Made by a program: the position numbers and the translations under genes. This document shows positions 54,385 to 64,000 of a stretch of DNA of 64,000 bases, piece after piece (the stretch's first letter is position 1; each line of letters opens with the position of its first letter). Under the pieces are notes generated by a model. That model did no database searches. It worked only from the letters and a program-made list of their open reading frames with translations, and had not been told where the DNA came from. This DNA is from Alphaproteobacteria bacterium (GTDB taxonomy: Bacteria; Pseudomonadota; Alphaproteobacteria; UBA2966), in contig OZ219858.1 of NCBI GenBank assembly GCA_964291395.2, positions 864,001-928,000 on the forward strand, given 5' to 3'.

Positions 54385-55398
54385 ATGCCCCGTTCGACAT
54401 CCCAAATAACCGGGGGTTCGCCCACGCCGGTATGCTGGGTCGTGACCGAGGGCGCCATCGGCATGGAAAATCAAGCGCTCGGATTGGCGGAGGCCATCGG
54501 TTTGCCCACCGTCATCAAGCGGGTGATGGTTCGTGCGCCGTGGATCCACCTCCCGGCCCAACTCTGGCCGCGTCCATTGAGCTTGATTGCCGAGGGCAGC
54601 GACCGGCTGGACGGACCCTGGCCTCGCCTGTTGATCACCTGTGGGCGGCGCAGTGTTCCCTTCAGCATGGCGATCCGACATGCCAGCGGCGGCGACTGTT
54701 TCACGGTCCATGTCCAAGACCCCAAAGTGCGCTTGAGCAACTTCGACCTCGTCGTGCCGCCCCGGCACGACGGGTTGTCCGGTCCCAACGTCATCGCGTC
54801 ACGCGGCGCACTCAACCGGGTGACCCCGCAGAAACTCGCTGAAGGGGTTCGGCGTCTCGCGCCACAGATAGCGGCGTTGCCTCACCCTGTGGTCGCGGTA
54901 CTGCTGGGTGGTACCAGTAACGGCTTCCGGTTGACTCCCGTCCGGACCAGCCGTCTTGCCGATCAACTGCTCGAATTGGTGCAGTCGACTGGCGCGGGCC
55001 TGGCCGTCACGCCATCACGGCGAACGGGTGAGGAAAACATCGCCGAACTTCGTCGGAAACTCTCAGGCAGCGGGGTTTTTCTCTGGAACGGCACGGGTCC
55101 AAACCCTTATTTCGGGCTTCTCGGTCTGGCGGATGCCATCGCGGTGACCTGCGACTCCGTCAGCATGGTGTCCGAGGCGGTCACCACGGGAAAGCCGACT
55201 TATGTGATCGATCTCGACGGCGGTTCGCGGCGCCTTCGCAGGTTTCATGACTCCTTGCGCGCCGACGGTGTCACCCGGCCCTTCGACGGAGGCCTGGAGC
55301 AATGGGTTTACGCGCCCCTGGATGACACCACGACGGTTGCCGCAGCCGTTCGCCAGAGACTAGGATTGGCCGTGCAGGAGCCCACCGAATGTCACTGA
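54385..55398 (+). CDS. ELM1/GtrOC1 (DUF1022)-family putative glycosyltransferase
   Basis: G..G..NQA.GLAE, FDLVV.P.HD, LLGG, TPSRRT, NPY...L...D...VT.DSVSMVSEA..TGKP. Confidence 0.87.
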   Translation: MPRSTSQITGGSPTPVCWVVTEGAIGMENQALGLAEAIGLPTVIKRVMVRAPWIHLPAQLWPRPLSLIAEGSDRLDGPWPRLLITCGRRSVPFSMAIRHASGGDCFTVHVQDPKVRLSNFDLVVPPRHDGLSGPNVIASRGALNRVTPQKLAEGVRRLAPQIAALPHPVVAVLLGGTSNGFRLTPVRTSRLADQLLELVQSTGAGLAVTPSRRTGEENIAELRRKLSGSGVFLWNGTGPNPYFGLLGLADAIAVTCDSVSMVSEAVTTGKPTYVIDLDGGSRRLRRFHDSLRADGVTRPFDGGLEQWVYAPLDDTTTVAAAVRQRLGLAVQEPTECH

Positions 55399-57323
55399 AC
55401 ATAGAGACGTTCAAGAACCAGGGTTGGCGCCCCGGTGGCAATTTCGGTGGCACGACCCTATTCAAGGCCCTCGGACATCCCCATGCCACGGAACGGGGGC
55501 AGGCGATGATTCAGCGACTGCGGCAGGCAGGTCCGGTCGCCGTCTACGATCCGTTGGGACAGGCCTCTGATTTTGAGGTGCTCTATTCGCTCGATGGCTG
55601 CAACGTTGTGGCCGCCTTCGTTCAGAACATCGACGAGGTCGGCACGAACGTGGCGGGTTGCGATGCCAGGCCGGTCACCGAGTTGCGAGGCTGTGCGGCG
55701 GCGACGCTTTTGATCGCCGCATTCGATGCGGACCGGCTCTTGGATCATATCCGTCATCTTTTGCCCGAGGGGATGAGCGTCGTCTCCCTCGACGAAATGC
55801 GCCTGCCCGAGGATTGGCTCAGCAATCGCCGCAAATATCTTGATCCCTTGAATTTTGCGACCAACTTCGCCTTTTTCCGTGACACGCAGGATCTGCACAC
55901 GTCCGTTCGTACCGCGAATTACTGGGCCGGATACGGCGCTCGGGATGTAGAGTTGTGGCTCTGCCTGTTCGACGAGTCCGGCTCCGTGTTGGCGAGTTGG
56001 AACGAACCGCTGACCGACGCGTGTTCCTCCATCACGATCGACAGCGCCGCAGTTCGGAGCCGGTTCGCTCTCGATGACTATTGCGGCTCTCTGTTCATTC
56101 ATGCGTTGCGCGTTCGCGGGCACGACGTCGTCAAGTACGCGCTGGACGTCCACGGGAATGACGCCGGCACGCTTTCTTGCACGCATGACGCCAATGCCTG
56201 GCCGGCGGATCTCTATGGCGGCACGCCGGCTCCGGACGAGGGTGAGCGCGTCGTGCTTTGGATTCAGAACAGCCACCCGCTCGCGATTCCCAGGGGCGGG
56301 GTCGGACTGAACGCCATGGGCTCACAGGATATCGCGTGGCTGGATCAGGAAATTCCTGCTTTCGGCACCCATGCACTCGATGTCGCCACTCTTCTTCCCG
56401 ATCTCCACTGGCCCGGCCAAATCGAAGTCCAGGCGGGGCGCTACTTCGTCCGGCCTCGATACGAGATCGAAGGCCCCGGCGGTCGGCGAAGGATCGCCCA
56501 CGCCAACGTCGAGCGCACCGATCTTGAGCCTGATCCACGAATTCCGGACCTTGCACCGCTCATGGGCAAGGGGTACATCCTGCCCTTTCCGGTATTGCCG
56601 GTGAGCGAATTCAGGAGCCTCGCTCTTCCGACGCCCATGGCGGCCACTCAGCGGGAGCTGCCCATCAAGTGCGCTCTGATGGACGCGGCCGGAGAGCGCG
56701 TCTCCGAGAAGTTTCTCGGACGCATCGCGCGGCGCGACAGCGTGGTCGTCGATGTCGACTCATGGATGCGGGATGAGGCCATTGACCTGCCGTCCGGCTA
56801 CGGGCACATCGAACTGCTCTATGACTTCAGGGACGGCGGCGAGGCGGACGGCTGGTTGCACGGCATCGGGCGCTACCGCCGCCGCGACAGCGAGTACGCG
56901 GCGGAAACGAGCTTCGGTGCTCACATCTTCAACACGCCCGTCGTGTATCGGGACGAACCGCAATCTTACGCGTCCAACCCTCCCGGATTGTCGACCCGCC
57001 TGTTTCTCAGGGTTGGTGGCCATGGTCTCCAGACCATGTGCCACCTCATCTACCCCGCCTCGCAGCCCTGGAAAGACTTTTCGGACACACAGTTCATCCT
57101 CCATGACGGAAACGGGGAAATCGTGGATACGGTCTCCGTCAAGATCCCTTGTAGCGGATCTCTGCACTGGCGCTACCACGAGACATTCGACGCGGATGCC
57201 GTGAGCCGCGCCGGCGACGGTGCCTACATTCTGGTCCGTGATGCGACATGCCGTCTTTTCGGTTATCACGGGCTGCTCTCGAACGACGACGCCTTTTGCC
57301 TCGACCATATGTTCGGTTTCTGA
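55389..57323 (+). CDS. Hypothetical protein (644 aa): Rossmann-like N-terminus plus four beta-rich modules
   Basis: Long uninterrupted ORF with AGGAG RBS, overlapping the upstream stop; no family recognised. Confidence 0.8.
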   Translation: MSLNIETFKNQGWRPGGNFGGTTLFKALGHPHATERGQAMIQRLRQAGPVAVYDPLGQASDFEVLYSLDGCNVVAAFVQNIDEVGTNVAGCDARPVTELRGCAAATLLIAAFDADRLLDHIRHLLPEGMSVVSLDEMRLPEDWLSNRRKYLDPLNFATNFAFFRDTQDLHTSVRTANYWAGYGARDVELWLCLFDESGSVLASWNEPLTDACSSITIDSAAVRSRFALDDYCGSLFIHALRVRGHDVVKYALDVHGNDAGTLSCTHDANAWPADLYGGTPAPDEGERVVLWIQNSHPLAIPRGGVGLNAMGSQDIAWLDQEIPAFGTHALDVATLLPDLHWPGQIEVQAGRYFVRPRYEIEGPGGRRRIAHANVERTDLEPDPRIPDLAPLMGKGYILPFPVLPVSEFRSLALPTPMAATQRELPIKCALMDAAGERVSEKFLGRIARRDSVVVDVDSWMRDEAIDLPSGYGHIELLYDFRDGGEADGWLHGIGRYRRRDSEYAAETSFGAHIFNTPVVYRDEPQSYASNPPGLSTRLFLRVGGHGLQTMCHLIYPASQPWKDFSDTQFILHDGNGEIVDTVSVKIPCSGSLHWRYHETFDADAVSRAGDGAYILVRDATCRLFGYHGLLSNDDAFCLDHMFGF

Positions 57324-60265: not shown

Positions 60266-60292
60266 AGCGGGGGGAGGTCTCGGCGACCGACG

Positions 60293-60608
60293 CTACATGA
60301 ACAGCCGTTTGCCTTCCATGCCGTCATACAGTTGGGCAACGAACTTGCCGTAACCGTTGTAAATCACCGTCGGAATTCTGTCGTTCGTCCCGAGCACGCG
60401 TTCCGTCGCTTGGCTCCATCGGGGGTGGGGAACTTCCGGATTGACATTCGCCCAGAAGCCATACTTCCACGGGGCCGCAAGCCGGAGCGGCGCGCCGTGC
60501 TGCTTTGCCAGCGGTTTGCCATAAGCGCCCGTTACCATGAACGCGAGATCGTGCCGCCTCGGCAATGGTCAGTCCTTCGAGATAGGGCCAGGGATACCAG
60601 AACTGCCG
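60293..60608 (-). pseudogene. msrP: msrP (yedY) 3' remnant, frameshifted and internally deleted
   Basis: [18 protein letters not shown] [frameshift] [32 protein letters not shown]|[24 protein letters not shown]; Tat signal and N-terminal half absent. Confidence 0.85.
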
Positions 60609-60745
60609 CGGATGCGGACCCGTCAGGCCCGGCGCTCCGCCGCTATCCGCGGCCTGACCCAGCTGCCGACCCCGGCCGCCGCTTCCTCGGCGCGTTGGCG
60701 GGACGGCCCGGCAAGAGGCCCTGAACGTTCGGTCCTTGATCGATC

Positions 60746-61507
60746 CTATGAAGGCCCGGCCGAATCGTGGAGCGCGATCGCGGACCCCACCCTTGAGGCG
60801 AGCTGCATGAGGTGCACGCCCACCCGGGCGCGATGTGCGCCCGTGAACCTGCGAATGGGCCCGATCGCGCCGACGCTGAACATGGCCCCGAGGTCGCCGG
60901 TCTGTACCGGCGCGGCCACGCTCGCTACGCCGACCTCGATCTCTTCGACGCATTCCGCGTATCCCCGCGTGCGAATGCCCGCGAATTCCGCCCGCAGCTC
61001 GTCGCGCGTGATCTTCGTCCGCGCCGTGTAGGCCTTGAGCGGGCCGTCGAGAATCTCCTCGCGAAAATCCTCCTCCGCGAATGCCGCAATCGCCTTGGAG
61101 CACGAACAGGCATGCATCGGGCGATGGCCGAGGCCCGGATGGATGTAGGCCCGCGCCGGATCGGCCGGCGTCTCTACGTGAATGATCTCGACGTTCCTGT
61201 TCCGCAGCCGGGACAGGAAGACGGCTTCGCCGAAATCCATGGCGGCATCCTTCAGCGTCGGCGCGACCGCATTACGCACGTCGGCGTCCGGTCTGCCGAG
61301 CAGGGCGATCCGGATCAGCCGCCCGCCGATCAGATACCGGGACGTCCCCTCGGGATCGTCCAGCAGGCGGTGATCCGCCAGGGTCTGCAGCAGCCGATAG
61401 CAGGTCGGGCGCGGCAAGCCGGTCGCCCGCTGAAGCTCCGGCGCGGAGAGCGGCCGCCCGGCGACGGCGACCGTCTCGAGCACGGATACGACCCGGTCTA
61501 GATGCAT
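60746..61507 (-). CDS. IclR-family regulator
   Basis: HTH LPRPTCYRLLQTL; IclR effector domain (R.RGYA...EE...GV.SVA.P). Confidence 0.9.
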   Translation of the reverse strand: MHLDRVVSVLETVAVAGRPLSAPELQRATGLPRPTCYRLLQTLADHRLLDDPEGTSRYLIGGRLIRIALLGRPDADVRNAVAPTLKDAAMDFGEAVFLSRLRNRNVEIIHVETPADPARAYIHPGLGHRPMHACSCSKAIAAFAEEDFREEILDGPLKAYTARTKITRDELRAEFAGIRTRGYAECVEEIEVGVASVAAPVQTGDLGAMFSVGAIGPIRRFTGAHRARVGVHLMQLASRVGSAIALHDSAGPS

Positions 61508-61636
61508 GATCGTCTCATTCTACGGACATTTATATCATGAAATGCTATTCAAGCCATGGGTTTTTCGCTAGACTCGGATCGTCCGGACAACTGCAACGTC
61601 CGCCTCGGGCGGACCGCGCATCGGGAGGGAGACGAC

Positions 61637-63001
61637 ATGACCGGGAACGGCGGTTCGGAGTGTTGCGGCCCCGGCTACGCCTCGCCCGAGGAGGCCATGA
61701 AGGCGCCGCGCGAGACGCTGCTCTACACGGTAGCGCTGTACATCGGCACCGGCATCCAGAAGCCAGACTATCTGGCCACCATCGACGCGGACCCAGAAAG
61801 CCCCACCTACTCGCAGGTCGTCAGCCGGCTGGAAATGCCCGGCATCGGCGACGAGCTCCATCATACGGGGTGGAATGCATGCTCCTCCTGCCATCACGAT
61901 CCCACGAAGGAGCGGCGCTACCTGATCGTGCCCGGCGTGCGCAGCTCCAACCTGCACATCGTGGATTGCGCGAGCGACCCGCGGCGCCCGCGGCTGCACA
62001 AGGTGATTGACGGCGCCGAGATCAAGCGGAAGACCGATCTTTCGGCGCCGCACACGGTGCATTGCCTGGGCTCCGACATCATCATTTCCATGCTGGGCGA
62101 CGCCGGGGGCGAGGCCCCCGGCGGCTATCTCCACCTCGACCAGGACTTCGAGATCGTGGGGCGTTGGGAGAACGGCCTCGGCGGCATGAAGTTCAATTAC
62201 GACTTCTGGTACCAGCCGCGCCACAACGTCATGGTCTCCAGCGAGTGGGCCGCGCCCAACACCTTCATGCCGGGCTTCGACCTCGAGGAGGTGGGCCACC
62301 TGAAGTACGGCCGCGAGCTTCACTTCTGGAACTTCAGGGAGAAGCGTGTCGAGAACACGATCTACCTGGGCGAGGACGGCCTGATCCCGCTGGAGGTCCG
62401 TTTCCATCACAACCCGGATTCGAGCCATGGCTTCGTCGGCGCGGCGCTCTCGTCGAACATCCTCCACTGGTACAAGAAGAACGACGAGTGGATCGTCGAG
62501 AAGATCATCGACGTGGAGAACGAGCGGCATCCGGACTGGCCGATCCCGATACCCGGCGTGATCAGCGTGATCCTGCTGTCGATGGACGATCGGTTTCTCT
62601 ACTTCTCGAACTGGCTTCACGGAGACTTGCGCCAGTACGACATCTCCGATCCCTCCGATCCCAGGCTCACCGGTCAAGTCTGGATGGGCGGCCTTCTCGG
62701 CAGAGCCCCGGAGGTGAACGGCCGCCGCATCACGGGCGGACCGCAGATGCTTCAGCTCTCGCTCGACGGGAGGCGTCTCTACGTGACCACTTCCCTGTTT
62801 TCGACCTGGGACAACCAGTTCTACCCGGGCATCCGCGAGAATGGCGGTTGCATGCTGATGGTCGACTGCGACACCGAGGGGGGCGGCATGTCGATCAATC
62901 CCGACTTCTTCGTCGACTTCGGCAAGGAGCCCCACGGGCCGGCGCGTTGCCACGAAACGCGCTATCCCGGCGGCGACTGCACCTCCGACATCTGGACATA
63001 G
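61637..63001 (+). CDS. SBP56/SELENBP1-family protein (methanethiol oxidase-like)
   Basis: CCGPGYASP.EAM..PRE, GDELHHTGWNACSSC, PHTVHC, YDFWYQPRHNVMVSSEW, GGPQMLQLSLDGRRLYVT, HETRYPGGDCTSDIW; GGGAGGGAG RBS. Confidence 0.93.
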   Translation: MTGNGGSECCGPGYASPEEAMKAPRETLLYTVALYIGTGIQKPDYLATIDADPESPTYSQVVSRLEMPGIGDELHHTGWNACSSCHHDPTKERRYLIVPGVRSSNLHIVDCASDPRRPRLHKVIDGAEIKRKTDLSAPHTVHCLGSDIIISMLGDAGGEAPGGYLHLDQDFEIVGRWENGLGGMKFNYDFWYQPRHNVMVSSEWAAPNTFMPGFDLEEVGHLKYGRELHFWNFREKRVENTIYLGEDGLIPLEVRFHHNPDSSHGFVGAALSSNILHWYKKNDEWIVEKIIDVENERHPDWPIPIPGVISVILLSMDDRFLYFSNWLHGDLRQYDISDPSDPRLTGQVWMGGLLGRAPEVNGRRITGGPQMLQLSLDGRRLYVTTSLFSTWDNQFYPGIRENGGCMLMVDCDTEGGGMSINPDFFVDFGKEPHGPARCHETRYPGGDCTSDIWT

Positions 63002-63013
63002 GGCGCGGCGGCG

Positions 63014-63427
63014 ATGCCGGGAACCACGAAGCCGGGTGGCGGCGGGCCAGAGCGCTTCACTGTCACGCTAGCCAACCGCGGCGGGCGCTCCTACGCGGTC
63101 GACGGGAACAGGCCGCTGCTCGACGCTCTCGAACGGCGCGGTGAGTCCCTGCCCTACGGCTGCCGCTACGGCGGGTGCATCTCGTGCGCCGCCAAGCTGC
63201 TTGCAGGCGAGGTCGATCAGAGCGCGGGCGTCGCTCTCAACGGCCGCCAGCTGGCGCACGGCTACGTGTTGCTCTGCGTGGCGCAGCCCCGAAGCGATTG
63301 CACGCTCGACGTCGGGGTCGAAAGCCACGACAGGTTGTACCGCAACCCCTTCCAGAGCCCGCTCCGGCCGGACGAACTCAAGCCCGGCATCCTGACAAAG
63401 CCGACGACCGCGGAGGCTCCGCCATGA
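63014..63427 (+). CDS. Plant-type 2Fe-2S ferredoxin
   Basis: LPYGCRYGGCISC...LLCVA.PRSD. Confidence 0.9.
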   Translation: MPGTTKPGGGGPERFTVTLANRGGRSYAVDGNRPLLDALERRGESLPYGCRYGGCISCAAKLLAGEVDQSAGVALNGRQLAHGYVLLCVAQPRSDCTLDVGVESHDRLYRNPFQSPLRPDELKPGILTKPTTAEAPP

Positions 63428-63873
63428 ATCACGATGAAGACTATCCGGCGGAATACTTGGCCGGAATCCTGAGCACGGTGAAAACCATCGCCATGGTCGG
63501 CGCGAGTGCCGACCCGACGAAATTCAGTTACGGCGTGCTGCGGGTCCTGCACGAAACGGGCTACGACATGATCCCCGTCAATCCCCGTGAGGCTGGCAAC
63601 AAGATCCGCGGCCTCGAATGCCGCGAATCCCTGTCCACGATCAGGCGGCCCGTCGACATGGTGCAGATCTTCCGGTCGTCCGAGGCGGCCTACGGCGTCA
63701 CCGAGGAGGCGATCGACATCGGCGCCAAGGTGGTCTGGATGCAGCTCGGCGTGCGCAATGACGCGGCGGCTCGCCTGGCGGAAGGGGCCGGCCTCAAGGT
63801 GGTGATGAACCGCTGCCCGAAGATCGAGCTGTTCCGCCCGTTCTGGACGCCCCGCCTCAACCGGAAGATATAG
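63424..63873 (+). CDS. CoA-binding domain protein (YccU-like)
   Basis: IAMVGAS, PVNP, VDMVQIFR, VWMQLG, VVMNRCPKIE; ATGA overlap with the ferredoxin. Confidence 0.9.
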   Translation: MNHDEDYPAEYLAGILSTVKTIAMVGASADPTKFSYGVLRVLHETGYDMIPVNPREAGNKIRGLECRESLSTIRRPVDMVQIFRSSEAAYGVTEEAIDIGAKVVWMQLGVRNDAAARLAEGAGLKVVMNRCPKIELFRPFWTPRLNRKI

Positions 63874-63966
63874 ACGGCGCCCGGCCAGAGGCCGTGTCAA
63901 TCGCTCCGGGCAGGCGCTAGAATCGTTGCACTGTTCCTCACAAGGTCCGGAGCAGGGAGGTTTTCT

Positions 63967-64000
63967 ATGGCGCAGCTCTACGACCACGAAGGCATGAAGC
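63967..64000 (+). CDS. Start of an unidentified gene (partial)
   Basis: GGGAGG RBS then MAQLYDHEGMK. Confidence 0.5.
   Translation, partial: MAQLYDHEGMK

Follow-up and report, generated by a model that had tools for sequence, protein, structure and literature searches.

A Ferredoxin-Linked, SELENBP1-Type Copper Thiol Oxidase Locus in an Alphaproteobacterial Genome and a Proposed Role for Its Accessory Genes

What does a private ferredoxin do beside an enzyme that resembles cytoplasmic methanethiol oxidases? The question is raised by a locus at the end of a 64,000-nucleotide stretch of DNA (the window; positions 864,001 to 928,000 of contig OZ219858.1, assembly GCA_964291395.2) from an alphaproteobacterium of the UBA2966 lineage, in which genes for an SBP56-family protein, a [2Fe-2S] ferredoxin, and a CoA-binding protein follow one another next to a divergent IclR-family regulator gene. 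Oxidation of methanethiol ranks among the main sinks in the marine sulfur cycle; SELENBP1, the human enzyme, is under medical study. The maturation, the cofactor, and even the products of SELENBP1-type enzymes are disputed; the recombinant enzyme of Roseobacter denitrificans (RdMTO) contained about 0.17 copper per chain (PMC13603461), and two groups obtained different products. The ferredoxin is a partner left out of the published enzyme assays, and with its docking modeled down to single residues, this dedicated ferredoxin opens maturation, cofactor, and products to direct experiment.

The SBP56 gene (61637..63001, plus strand) encodes a protein of 454 amino acids. Its likely start is the ATG at 61637 and not that at 61556, given a GGGAGG ribosome-binding site and orthologs that begin at the same place. 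The ferredoxin gene (63014..63427, plus strand) starts 12 nucleotides past the SBP56 stop and overlaps the CoA-binding protein gene (63424..63873, plus strand) by 4 nucleotides; the IclR gene (60746..61507, minus strand) is divergent from the SBP56 gene, and an AhpD/CMD-like gene starts at the window edge (63968..64000, plus strand). This is the arrangement given in an earlier note made from the sequence alone. In an independently sequenced sponge metagenome (run X3), one contig of 3828 nucleotides, with 51 differences, covers everything from iclR to the AhpD-like gene; thus, the gene order is not an assembly artefact. The earlier note had also found no mauG or sco gene, and this held when the contig was followed outward, with no homolog of either near the locus or in the 14 kb past the window. 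A MauG candidate elsewhere in the genome, 345 kb away, was rejected at 112 bits against a cut-off of 444.

The SBP56 protein matched PF05694 with 699 bits (cut-off 34), and its predicted model is a beta-propeller with a TM-score of 0.91 to the structure 2ECE. The terminal, histidine, and tryptophan motifs to which the earlier note had drawn attention (CCGPG, DELHH, PHTVHC, SSEW, STWDNQFY, and GGDCTSDIW) are all found in it. The absence of a signal peptide was also borne out, since the N-terminal hydrophobicity was 0.08 versus 2.3–3.2 in three MtoX-type controls, in a screen of hydrophobicity and not by a trained predictor. H75, H76, H139, H142, D189, and E253 are present in 87/87 rows of clade A and C448 in 84/87; these positions, together with C82, C85, and C143, carry the same numbers as the copper residues and cysteines listed for RdMTO (PMC13603461), and the two proteins are colinear. 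RdMTO, designated a "cluster 1" methanethiol oxidase (PMC10936201, PMC13603461) and 53% identical to human SELENBP1 (PMC13603461), shares with the human protein and the window protein the leaderless SBP56 propeller and identical positions of the copper ligands and the C-terminal cysteine. By its sequence, the window protein is thus a leaderless copper thiol oxidase of the SELENBP1/RdMTO type. The enzyme type is not unexplored territory, since RdMTO is already a bacterial model: expressed alone in Escherichia coli, it formed H2S, H2O2, and formaldehyde in a copper-dependent manner (PMC13603461). For the same enzyme, sulfane sulfur without H2O2 has been given as product (PMC10936201). By analogy with RdMTO, the window enzyme likely oxidizes methanethiol in the cytoplasm.

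The periplasmic MtoX proteins of Hyphomicrobium sp. VS and Ruegeria pomeroyi (PMC5739008) belong to the same family, the IclR genes beside mtoX and beside the window gene are related, and H75, H76, H139, H439, and W391 of the window protein correspond to H88, H89, H141, H424, and W386 of the R. pomeroyi enzyme (RpMTO). They differ in several respects: identity is 26%, the window protein has no signal peptide and failed the periplasmic MtoX model NF052453 (138 bits, cut-off 650), and queries with sco and mauG matched none of 80 neighborhoods of its relatives. These neighborhoods are the best 80 of at least 590 confirmed GTDB loci and are therefore biased to close relatives.

Within this set, the ferredoxin gene adjoins the SBP56 gene at 74 of the 80 loci, or 74 of the 78 with room for it, as two loci without ferredoxin end at a contig edge. 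The CoA-binding gene is present at 68/80 and the IclR gene at 20/80. Record titles place hosts of these loci among Alpha-, Beta-, and Gammaproteobacteria, Acidobacteriota, Chloroflexota, Actinomycetota, and Gemmatimonadota. The proposal of a distinct cytoplasmic module is supported, with both partner genes kept with this SBP56 clade. On a FastTree phylogeny, built with no eukaryote rows and no clade test and with 15 partial or duplicate loci omitted, 78 of the 80 rows of one clade (support 100), the window row included, carry the ferredoxin. An even sample of 401 genomes of the class had an SBP56 match in 26 (5 of this clade, 9 of a clade at 40–47% identity, 10 of the MtoX type, and 2 weak). 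The ferredoxin profile reached 155–198 bits in only five of the 401 genomes, all with this enzyme clade and with the two genes adjacent in 5/5; the next match (91 bits) was a plastid contaminant fragment. A plastid-like contig (tufA, rps10, petF, dnaB) lies within an alphaproteobacterial genome bin (L124, G097:C103). The SBP56–ferredoxin pair is also adjacent in four of the nine haloarchaeal species with SBP56 plasmids.

RdMTO itself is likely a member of the ferredoxin-linked clade, as judged from sequence motifs. Its residue spacing was found in 58 rows, each ferredoxin-linked or at a contig edge. The ends and the motif encoded by its primers (PMC10936201) match a locus of Paracoccus seriniphilus, in which the SBP56 gene is followed by the ferredoxin gene and a PF09948 "copper chaperone" gene. 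The word "ferredoxin" is absent from the main texts of both RdMTO papers (PMC10936201, PMC13603461), in which the enzyme was expressed alone, and the accessible part of PMC10277263 mentions neither ferredoxin nor gene neighborhood. In ocean transcripts, consecutive IMG identifiers annotated as CoA-binding protein, ferredoxin, and selenium-binding protein had expression ratios of 0.42, 0.34, and 0.47 (PMC10203303); we infer that these three are the trio. No description of the ferredoxin or the CoA-binding partner was found in the literature searched, most subscription journals lying outside it and supplements possibly listing the genes. The enzyme type is known, and its accessory system is not described in that literature.

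Several unusual loci were noted. Apparent SBP56–ferredoxin fusions (P0152, P0164, and P0167) were rejected as frameshift read-throughs. In one Burkholderiales metagenome-assembled genome (MAG), SBP56, ferredoxin, and CoA-binding protein stand in one frame of 709 amino acids (L077:7992-10121), possibly through an assembly error. An actinomycetotal MAG carries tandem SBP56 genes of two clades, followed by the ferredoxin and CoA-binding genes (L061:6536-9362), and in another genome (G856) the SBP56 and ferredoxin genes are each present twice.

A complex of the enzyme with the ferredoxin was predicted with a score of 0.93, whereas the best of three controls, which did not include close cousins, scored 0.01. 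Contact agreement between the runs was at least 99%, and the pLDDT (predicted local distance difference test) of the partner was at least 93. The score mark used is reached by 116/157 solved complexes and by 2/215 mismatched pairs, and it is rough here, since our own alignments and a ligand were used. A search of the PDB returned the lone chain 2ECE as the sole SBP56 relative, and it is therefore unlikely that the predictor remembered a similar complex. In the model, the cluster loop of the ferredoxin (C50–C58) contacts G71–E73, residues 102–103, including R102, and residues 208–212, including N208, beside H75/H76 and W204. The invariant C-terminal tail of the ferredoxin (GV..LY.NPF) contacts T390–F395 around W391, as well as residues 303–304. 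P212 is found in 79/79 ferredoxin-linked rows, and Asp and Gly are commonest at this position in 12 ferredoxin-less sister rows. Part of the docking surface is kept in eukaryote-like representatives, most of them unnamed. The prediction supports binding of the ferredoxin to the enzyme without demonstrating it.

The ferredoxin is a stand-alone plant-type [2Fe-2S] protein of a private subfamily, with near-neutral charge. The median net charge of the subfamily core is +1, compared with -10 for the PetF control and -24 for the enzyme; the core charge is above zero in 45/71, and that of the window copy is +1 (isoelectric point 8.3). YfaE is reportedly a reactivating ferredoxin of comparable kind. 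Like XylT and YfaE, the window ferredoxin is small, adjoins an O2-using metalloenzyme as its presumed target, has no dedicated reductase, and is less acidic than PetF. It differs from them in that its partner is a copper propeller and not an iron enzyme, and in having its own C-terminal docking tail; it also fell below the YfaE sequence model (33 bits, cut-off 75), and no XylT model was among its matches. Small ferredoxins that reactivate a neighboring oxygenase are established and are described as basic (PMC2590616); reactivation in the present case would be by analogy.

No reductase family recurs in most of the 80 neighborhoods. Genes for an OsmC-like protein and an MSMEG_0569-like flavoprotein (flavin oxidoreductase) each lie near the trio in 12/80 loci (L007, L008, L010, L011, L014, L016, L017, L020, L028, and others), and a close pair of them also occurs in this genome (G000:C1:2244460-2246243), a candidate reductase link.

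The CoA-binding protein, a single-domain protein of the TT1466/PH1109 type, matched CoA_binding_2 (PF13380) with 128 bits (cut-off 22.8). It shares the NRCP motif with TT1466, PH1109, and 2DUW and differs from them in residues 30–41, in its C-terminal tail, and in being linked or fused to the ferredoxin and not to O-acetylhomoserine (OAH) sulfhydrylase; it forms a distinct subfamily. Fusions of ferredoxin and CoA-binding domains make up 43/47 long hits, in several lengths, and one is also found in L019. A paralog in this genome precedes an OAH sulfhydrylase gene above the cut-off (G000:C1:2021215-2023120). At 23 of 28 loci of the class (L169–L196; chosen as the best among 54 matches from 121 genomes), the parent CoA-binding family lies directly 5' of OAH sulfhydrylase, and 60 fusions to the Pfam domain of this enzyme were counted among the 120 long hits listed. 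Both subfamilies have an almost invariant Cys131. OAH sulfhydrylase is able to make methionine from methanethiol (bioRxiv 10.64898/2025.12.05.692484). Since the family accompanies two unrelated thiol-using enzymes, the pattern points to a putative role in thiol handling. The literature search found no published function for the family, the CoA-binding gene before OAH sulfhydrylase included.

On these grounds, we propose with about even confidence that the locus encodes a leaderless copper enzyme with a docking ferredoxin as low-flux reductive activator or repair partner, and with the CoA-binding protein on the thiol side. The SBP56 enzyme would oxidize methanethiol in the cytoplasm, and the ferredoxin would dock over its active-site face and donate occasional electrons that activate or repair the copper/tryptophan site, at low flux as in XylT or YfaE. 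Perhaps it is a cytoplasmic counterpart of MauG in the role proposed for the latter with periplasmic MtoX. The CoA-binding protein would work with the ferredoxin to capture or release methanethiol or sulfide bound to CoA, which is the weakest step, and methanethiol would induce the operon through IclR. The electron direction from ferredoxin to enzyme is itself inferred; low-flux donation is favored because flow from methanethiol to ferredoxin is estimated to be uphill, and the lack of a recurring reductase fits low flux. The earlier suggestion that the ferredoxin acts on the enzyme thus remains plausible in view of the predicted docking, whereas its option of the ferredoxin as electron acceptor is weaker.

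A number of observations weigh against this proposal. RdMTO and human SELENBP1, the latter also expressed alone in E. coli (PMC10362175), are active once copper is added, and the ferredoxin is therefore not essential in vitro. No tryptophan cofactor is shown for this enzyme type in the accessible parts of PMC13603461, PMC10936201, and PMC10362175, the main text of the last not mentioning tryptophan tryptophylquinone (TTQ). W391 aligns with RpMTO W386, one of the tryptophans of the TTQ proposed for MtoX (PMC5739008); however, RpMTO W223 aligns to P207, three residues past W204, and is itself Leu in 2/5 MtoX rows. The predicted interface is only slightly more conserved than the rest of the enzyme (0.93 vs. 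0.87). Twelve of 13 sister-group tree rows have no adjacent ferredoxin. Among Chloroflexota, in which 46/251 genomes matched, the ferredoxin was absent within 1.5 kb at 13 eukaryote-like loci of the 30 examined. Related enzymes in Planctomycetota are also without it; in the sample of this phylum, one genome of 201 was above the cut-off, the sample's own center. In 8/8 genomes with related enzymes lacking the neighbor, the ferredoxin subfamily was found nowhere, the completeness of these genomes being uncertain. Moreover, one ferredoxin copy (L201) has no SBP56 gene within 1.5 kb, the CoA-binding gene is absent from the basal ferredoxin-linked branch that likely holds RdMTO, and an Fpr-type reductase was not found in this genome, in which two other NAD_binding_1 proteins are present. 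The ferredoxin is thus an accessory of one SBP56 clade and not a universal maturase, as related enzymes lack it and the enzyme by itself works in vitro. The value of the locus as a model for SELENBP1 activation, which the earlier note had put forward, is limited by the many eukaryote-like homologs without such a ferredoxin. As for the cofactor, W231 was dropped as a candidate, since it equals RpMTO W250, which is not a proposed site. In 5/13 clade B proteins, W391 is replaced by Ile or Val, which would exclude a tryptophan quinone in those.

Other readings of the same evidence were considered. A ferredoxin that acts as stoichiometric donor would also suit the predicted complex, in which the cluster loop docks tightly next to the copper-histidine motif. 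In the cell, the enzyme would then be a copper monooxygenase that converts methanethiol, O2, and two electrons to formaldehyde, sulfide, and water without releasing H2O2, and the oxidase activity in vitro would be an uncoupled mode. The near-obligate linkage of ferredoxin and enzyme agrees with this, as does the disagreement over whether RdMTO releases H2O2; nevertheless, no reductase recurs with the operon, no Fpr was found in this genome, and the copper-loaded enzyme alone yields all three oxidase products, so we regard it as unlikely. Equally improbable in our estimate is a reductive thiol-handling unit, in which the ferredoxin and the CoA-binding protein act on CoA mixed disulfides or persulfides to set methanethiol or sulfide free, and docking is only a tether for substrate delivery or product removal. 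The frequent ferredoxin–CoA-binding fusions, the association of the parent family with OAH sulfhydrylase as neighbor and fusion partner, and the near-invariant Cys131 all speak for such a unit, but the basal branch and the haloarchaeal loci pair ferredoxin with SBP56 and have no CoA gene, and in the predicted complex it is SBP56 that the cluster loop faces. The docking is likewise compatible with a methanethiol dehydrogenase whose substrate electrons go to the ferredoxin, in the way reported for thiocyanate dehydrogenase, one of the structural neighbors of the SBP56 model, and its cytochrome c552 partner. This direction is quite improbable, as the couple methanethiol/(formaldehyde + H2S), estimated from formation energies at near 0 V, is much more positive than plant-type ferredoxins typically are (about -0.3 to -0.45 V).

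Finally, the genes could be co-inherited as a mobile sulfur cassette with no direct interaction between the products. In favor are the msrP repeats on either side of the block, the lack of SBP56 in two genomes from the same family, and the mixing of phyla on the tree; however, the CoA-binding gene precedes the ferredoxin gene in 23/68 loci with linkage kept, and the fusions, the reciprocal occurrence, and a complex score far above the controls leave this the least probable of the readings. A bolder extension of our proposal is also conceivable, and we hold it to be somewhat less improbable than the monooxygenase and thiol-handling alternatives. According to it, cytoplasmic SELENBP1-type enzymes would be ferredoxin-driven in the cell, either through a tryptophan-derived cofactor that the docked ferredoxin builds in place of MauG or as peroxide-free monooxygenases, with the CoA partner feeding CoA-bound thiol, and the published assays, including those of the human enzyme, would have been made on incompletely matured enzyme.

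The best plasmid matches of the IclR protein were a copy in Phaeobacter inhibens (45%) and SPOA0268 of R. pomeroyi (42%, E 2e-44), with the third at 31%. SPOA0268 is the IclR gene directly upstream of mtoX, which is induced about 14-fold by methanethiol (PMC5739008). A palindrome, TMTCA-N5-TGAKA, was found in 19/20 iclR-linked intergenic regions (shuffle mean 0.6) and in 1/56 without iclR; as the pattern was derived from the same iclR-linked regions, only the latter figure is an independent control. The copy in the window (61533..61547, no strand assigned) is imperfect, with one mismatch. The palindrome was not enriched in the window alone (four matches vs. 2.3 expected) and was not found upstream of the R. 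pomeroyi IclR gene. Thus, the divergent regulator resembles, at the sequence level, the one beside methanethiol-induced mtoX, and the palindrome is a candidate operator. Promoter and terminator scans gave results at chance level, and an RNA run (X20) yielded only short contigs.

The P. inhibens plasmid row comprises iclR, the trio, and genes for a rhodanese, a Blh-like dioxygenase, an enoyl-CoA hydratase, an acyl-CoA synthetase, and a DmdA-like protein; DmdA-like genes occur at 9/80 loci. In the genome studied here, the best DmdA matches were 325 and 319 bits (cut-off 410), and the SoxB match was 151 bits (cut-off 550).

Past the window, the contig carries the rest of the AhpD/CMD-like gene (197 amino acids; local to this genome), three genes that we take to be soeABC-like (G000:C3:928574-933135, contig numbering of the same contig), a 114-nucleotide stretch duplicated from the soeA-like gene, and a second msrP, which is intact. 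The soeABC-like trio encodes a leaderless molybdopterin subunit, a 4Fe-4S subunit, and a DmsC-type anchor, and no named SoeA model was among the matches. No orthologs of the AhpD-like and soeABC-like genes were found in the 80 loci, apart from two molybdopterin matches at 24–27%; they were therefore rejected as members of the module. On the other side, an msrP 3'-part remnant with an internal deletion (60289..60609, minus strand) shares 95–96% identity with the intact msrP, which lies about 9.1 kb downstream, and the two copies bracket the block from iclR to soeC. Together with the absence of any SBP56 match in two genomes of the same family, these repeats suggest that the block was gained by recombination. 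The 114-nucleotide duplicate, with the msrP remnant, also brackets the block (L001:11188-11756). The AhpD-like gene also has a decayed copy in this genome (G000:C1:1717235-1717484; 88% DNA identity).

Elsewhere in the family, the second cytoplasmic SBP56 clade (RlMTO-like; L086–L094, L115–L118, and L140–L158) has a different neighbor, a gene for an unnamed membrane protein of about 210 amino acids, which follows in 27/30 tree rows and in 9/9 cases in the class sample. The protein has conserved His/Met motifs and no Pfam or NCBIfam match; its nearest named Atlas clusters are DsbD_2/NicO (scores below 0.9), and it is possibly a copper or reductant supplier. The survey suggests a separate accessory gene for each of three bacterial SBP56 clades, namely sco/mauG, the unnamed membrane protein, or the ferredoxin.

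Within the window, a 644-amino-acid open reading frame without a Pfam or NCBIfam match (55389-57323) lies between an ELM1-family gene and a thioredoxin-reductase-like gene. Twelve of the 20 public runs containing part of the stretch are labeled sponge metagenome, and the host bacterium is likely sponge-dwelling.

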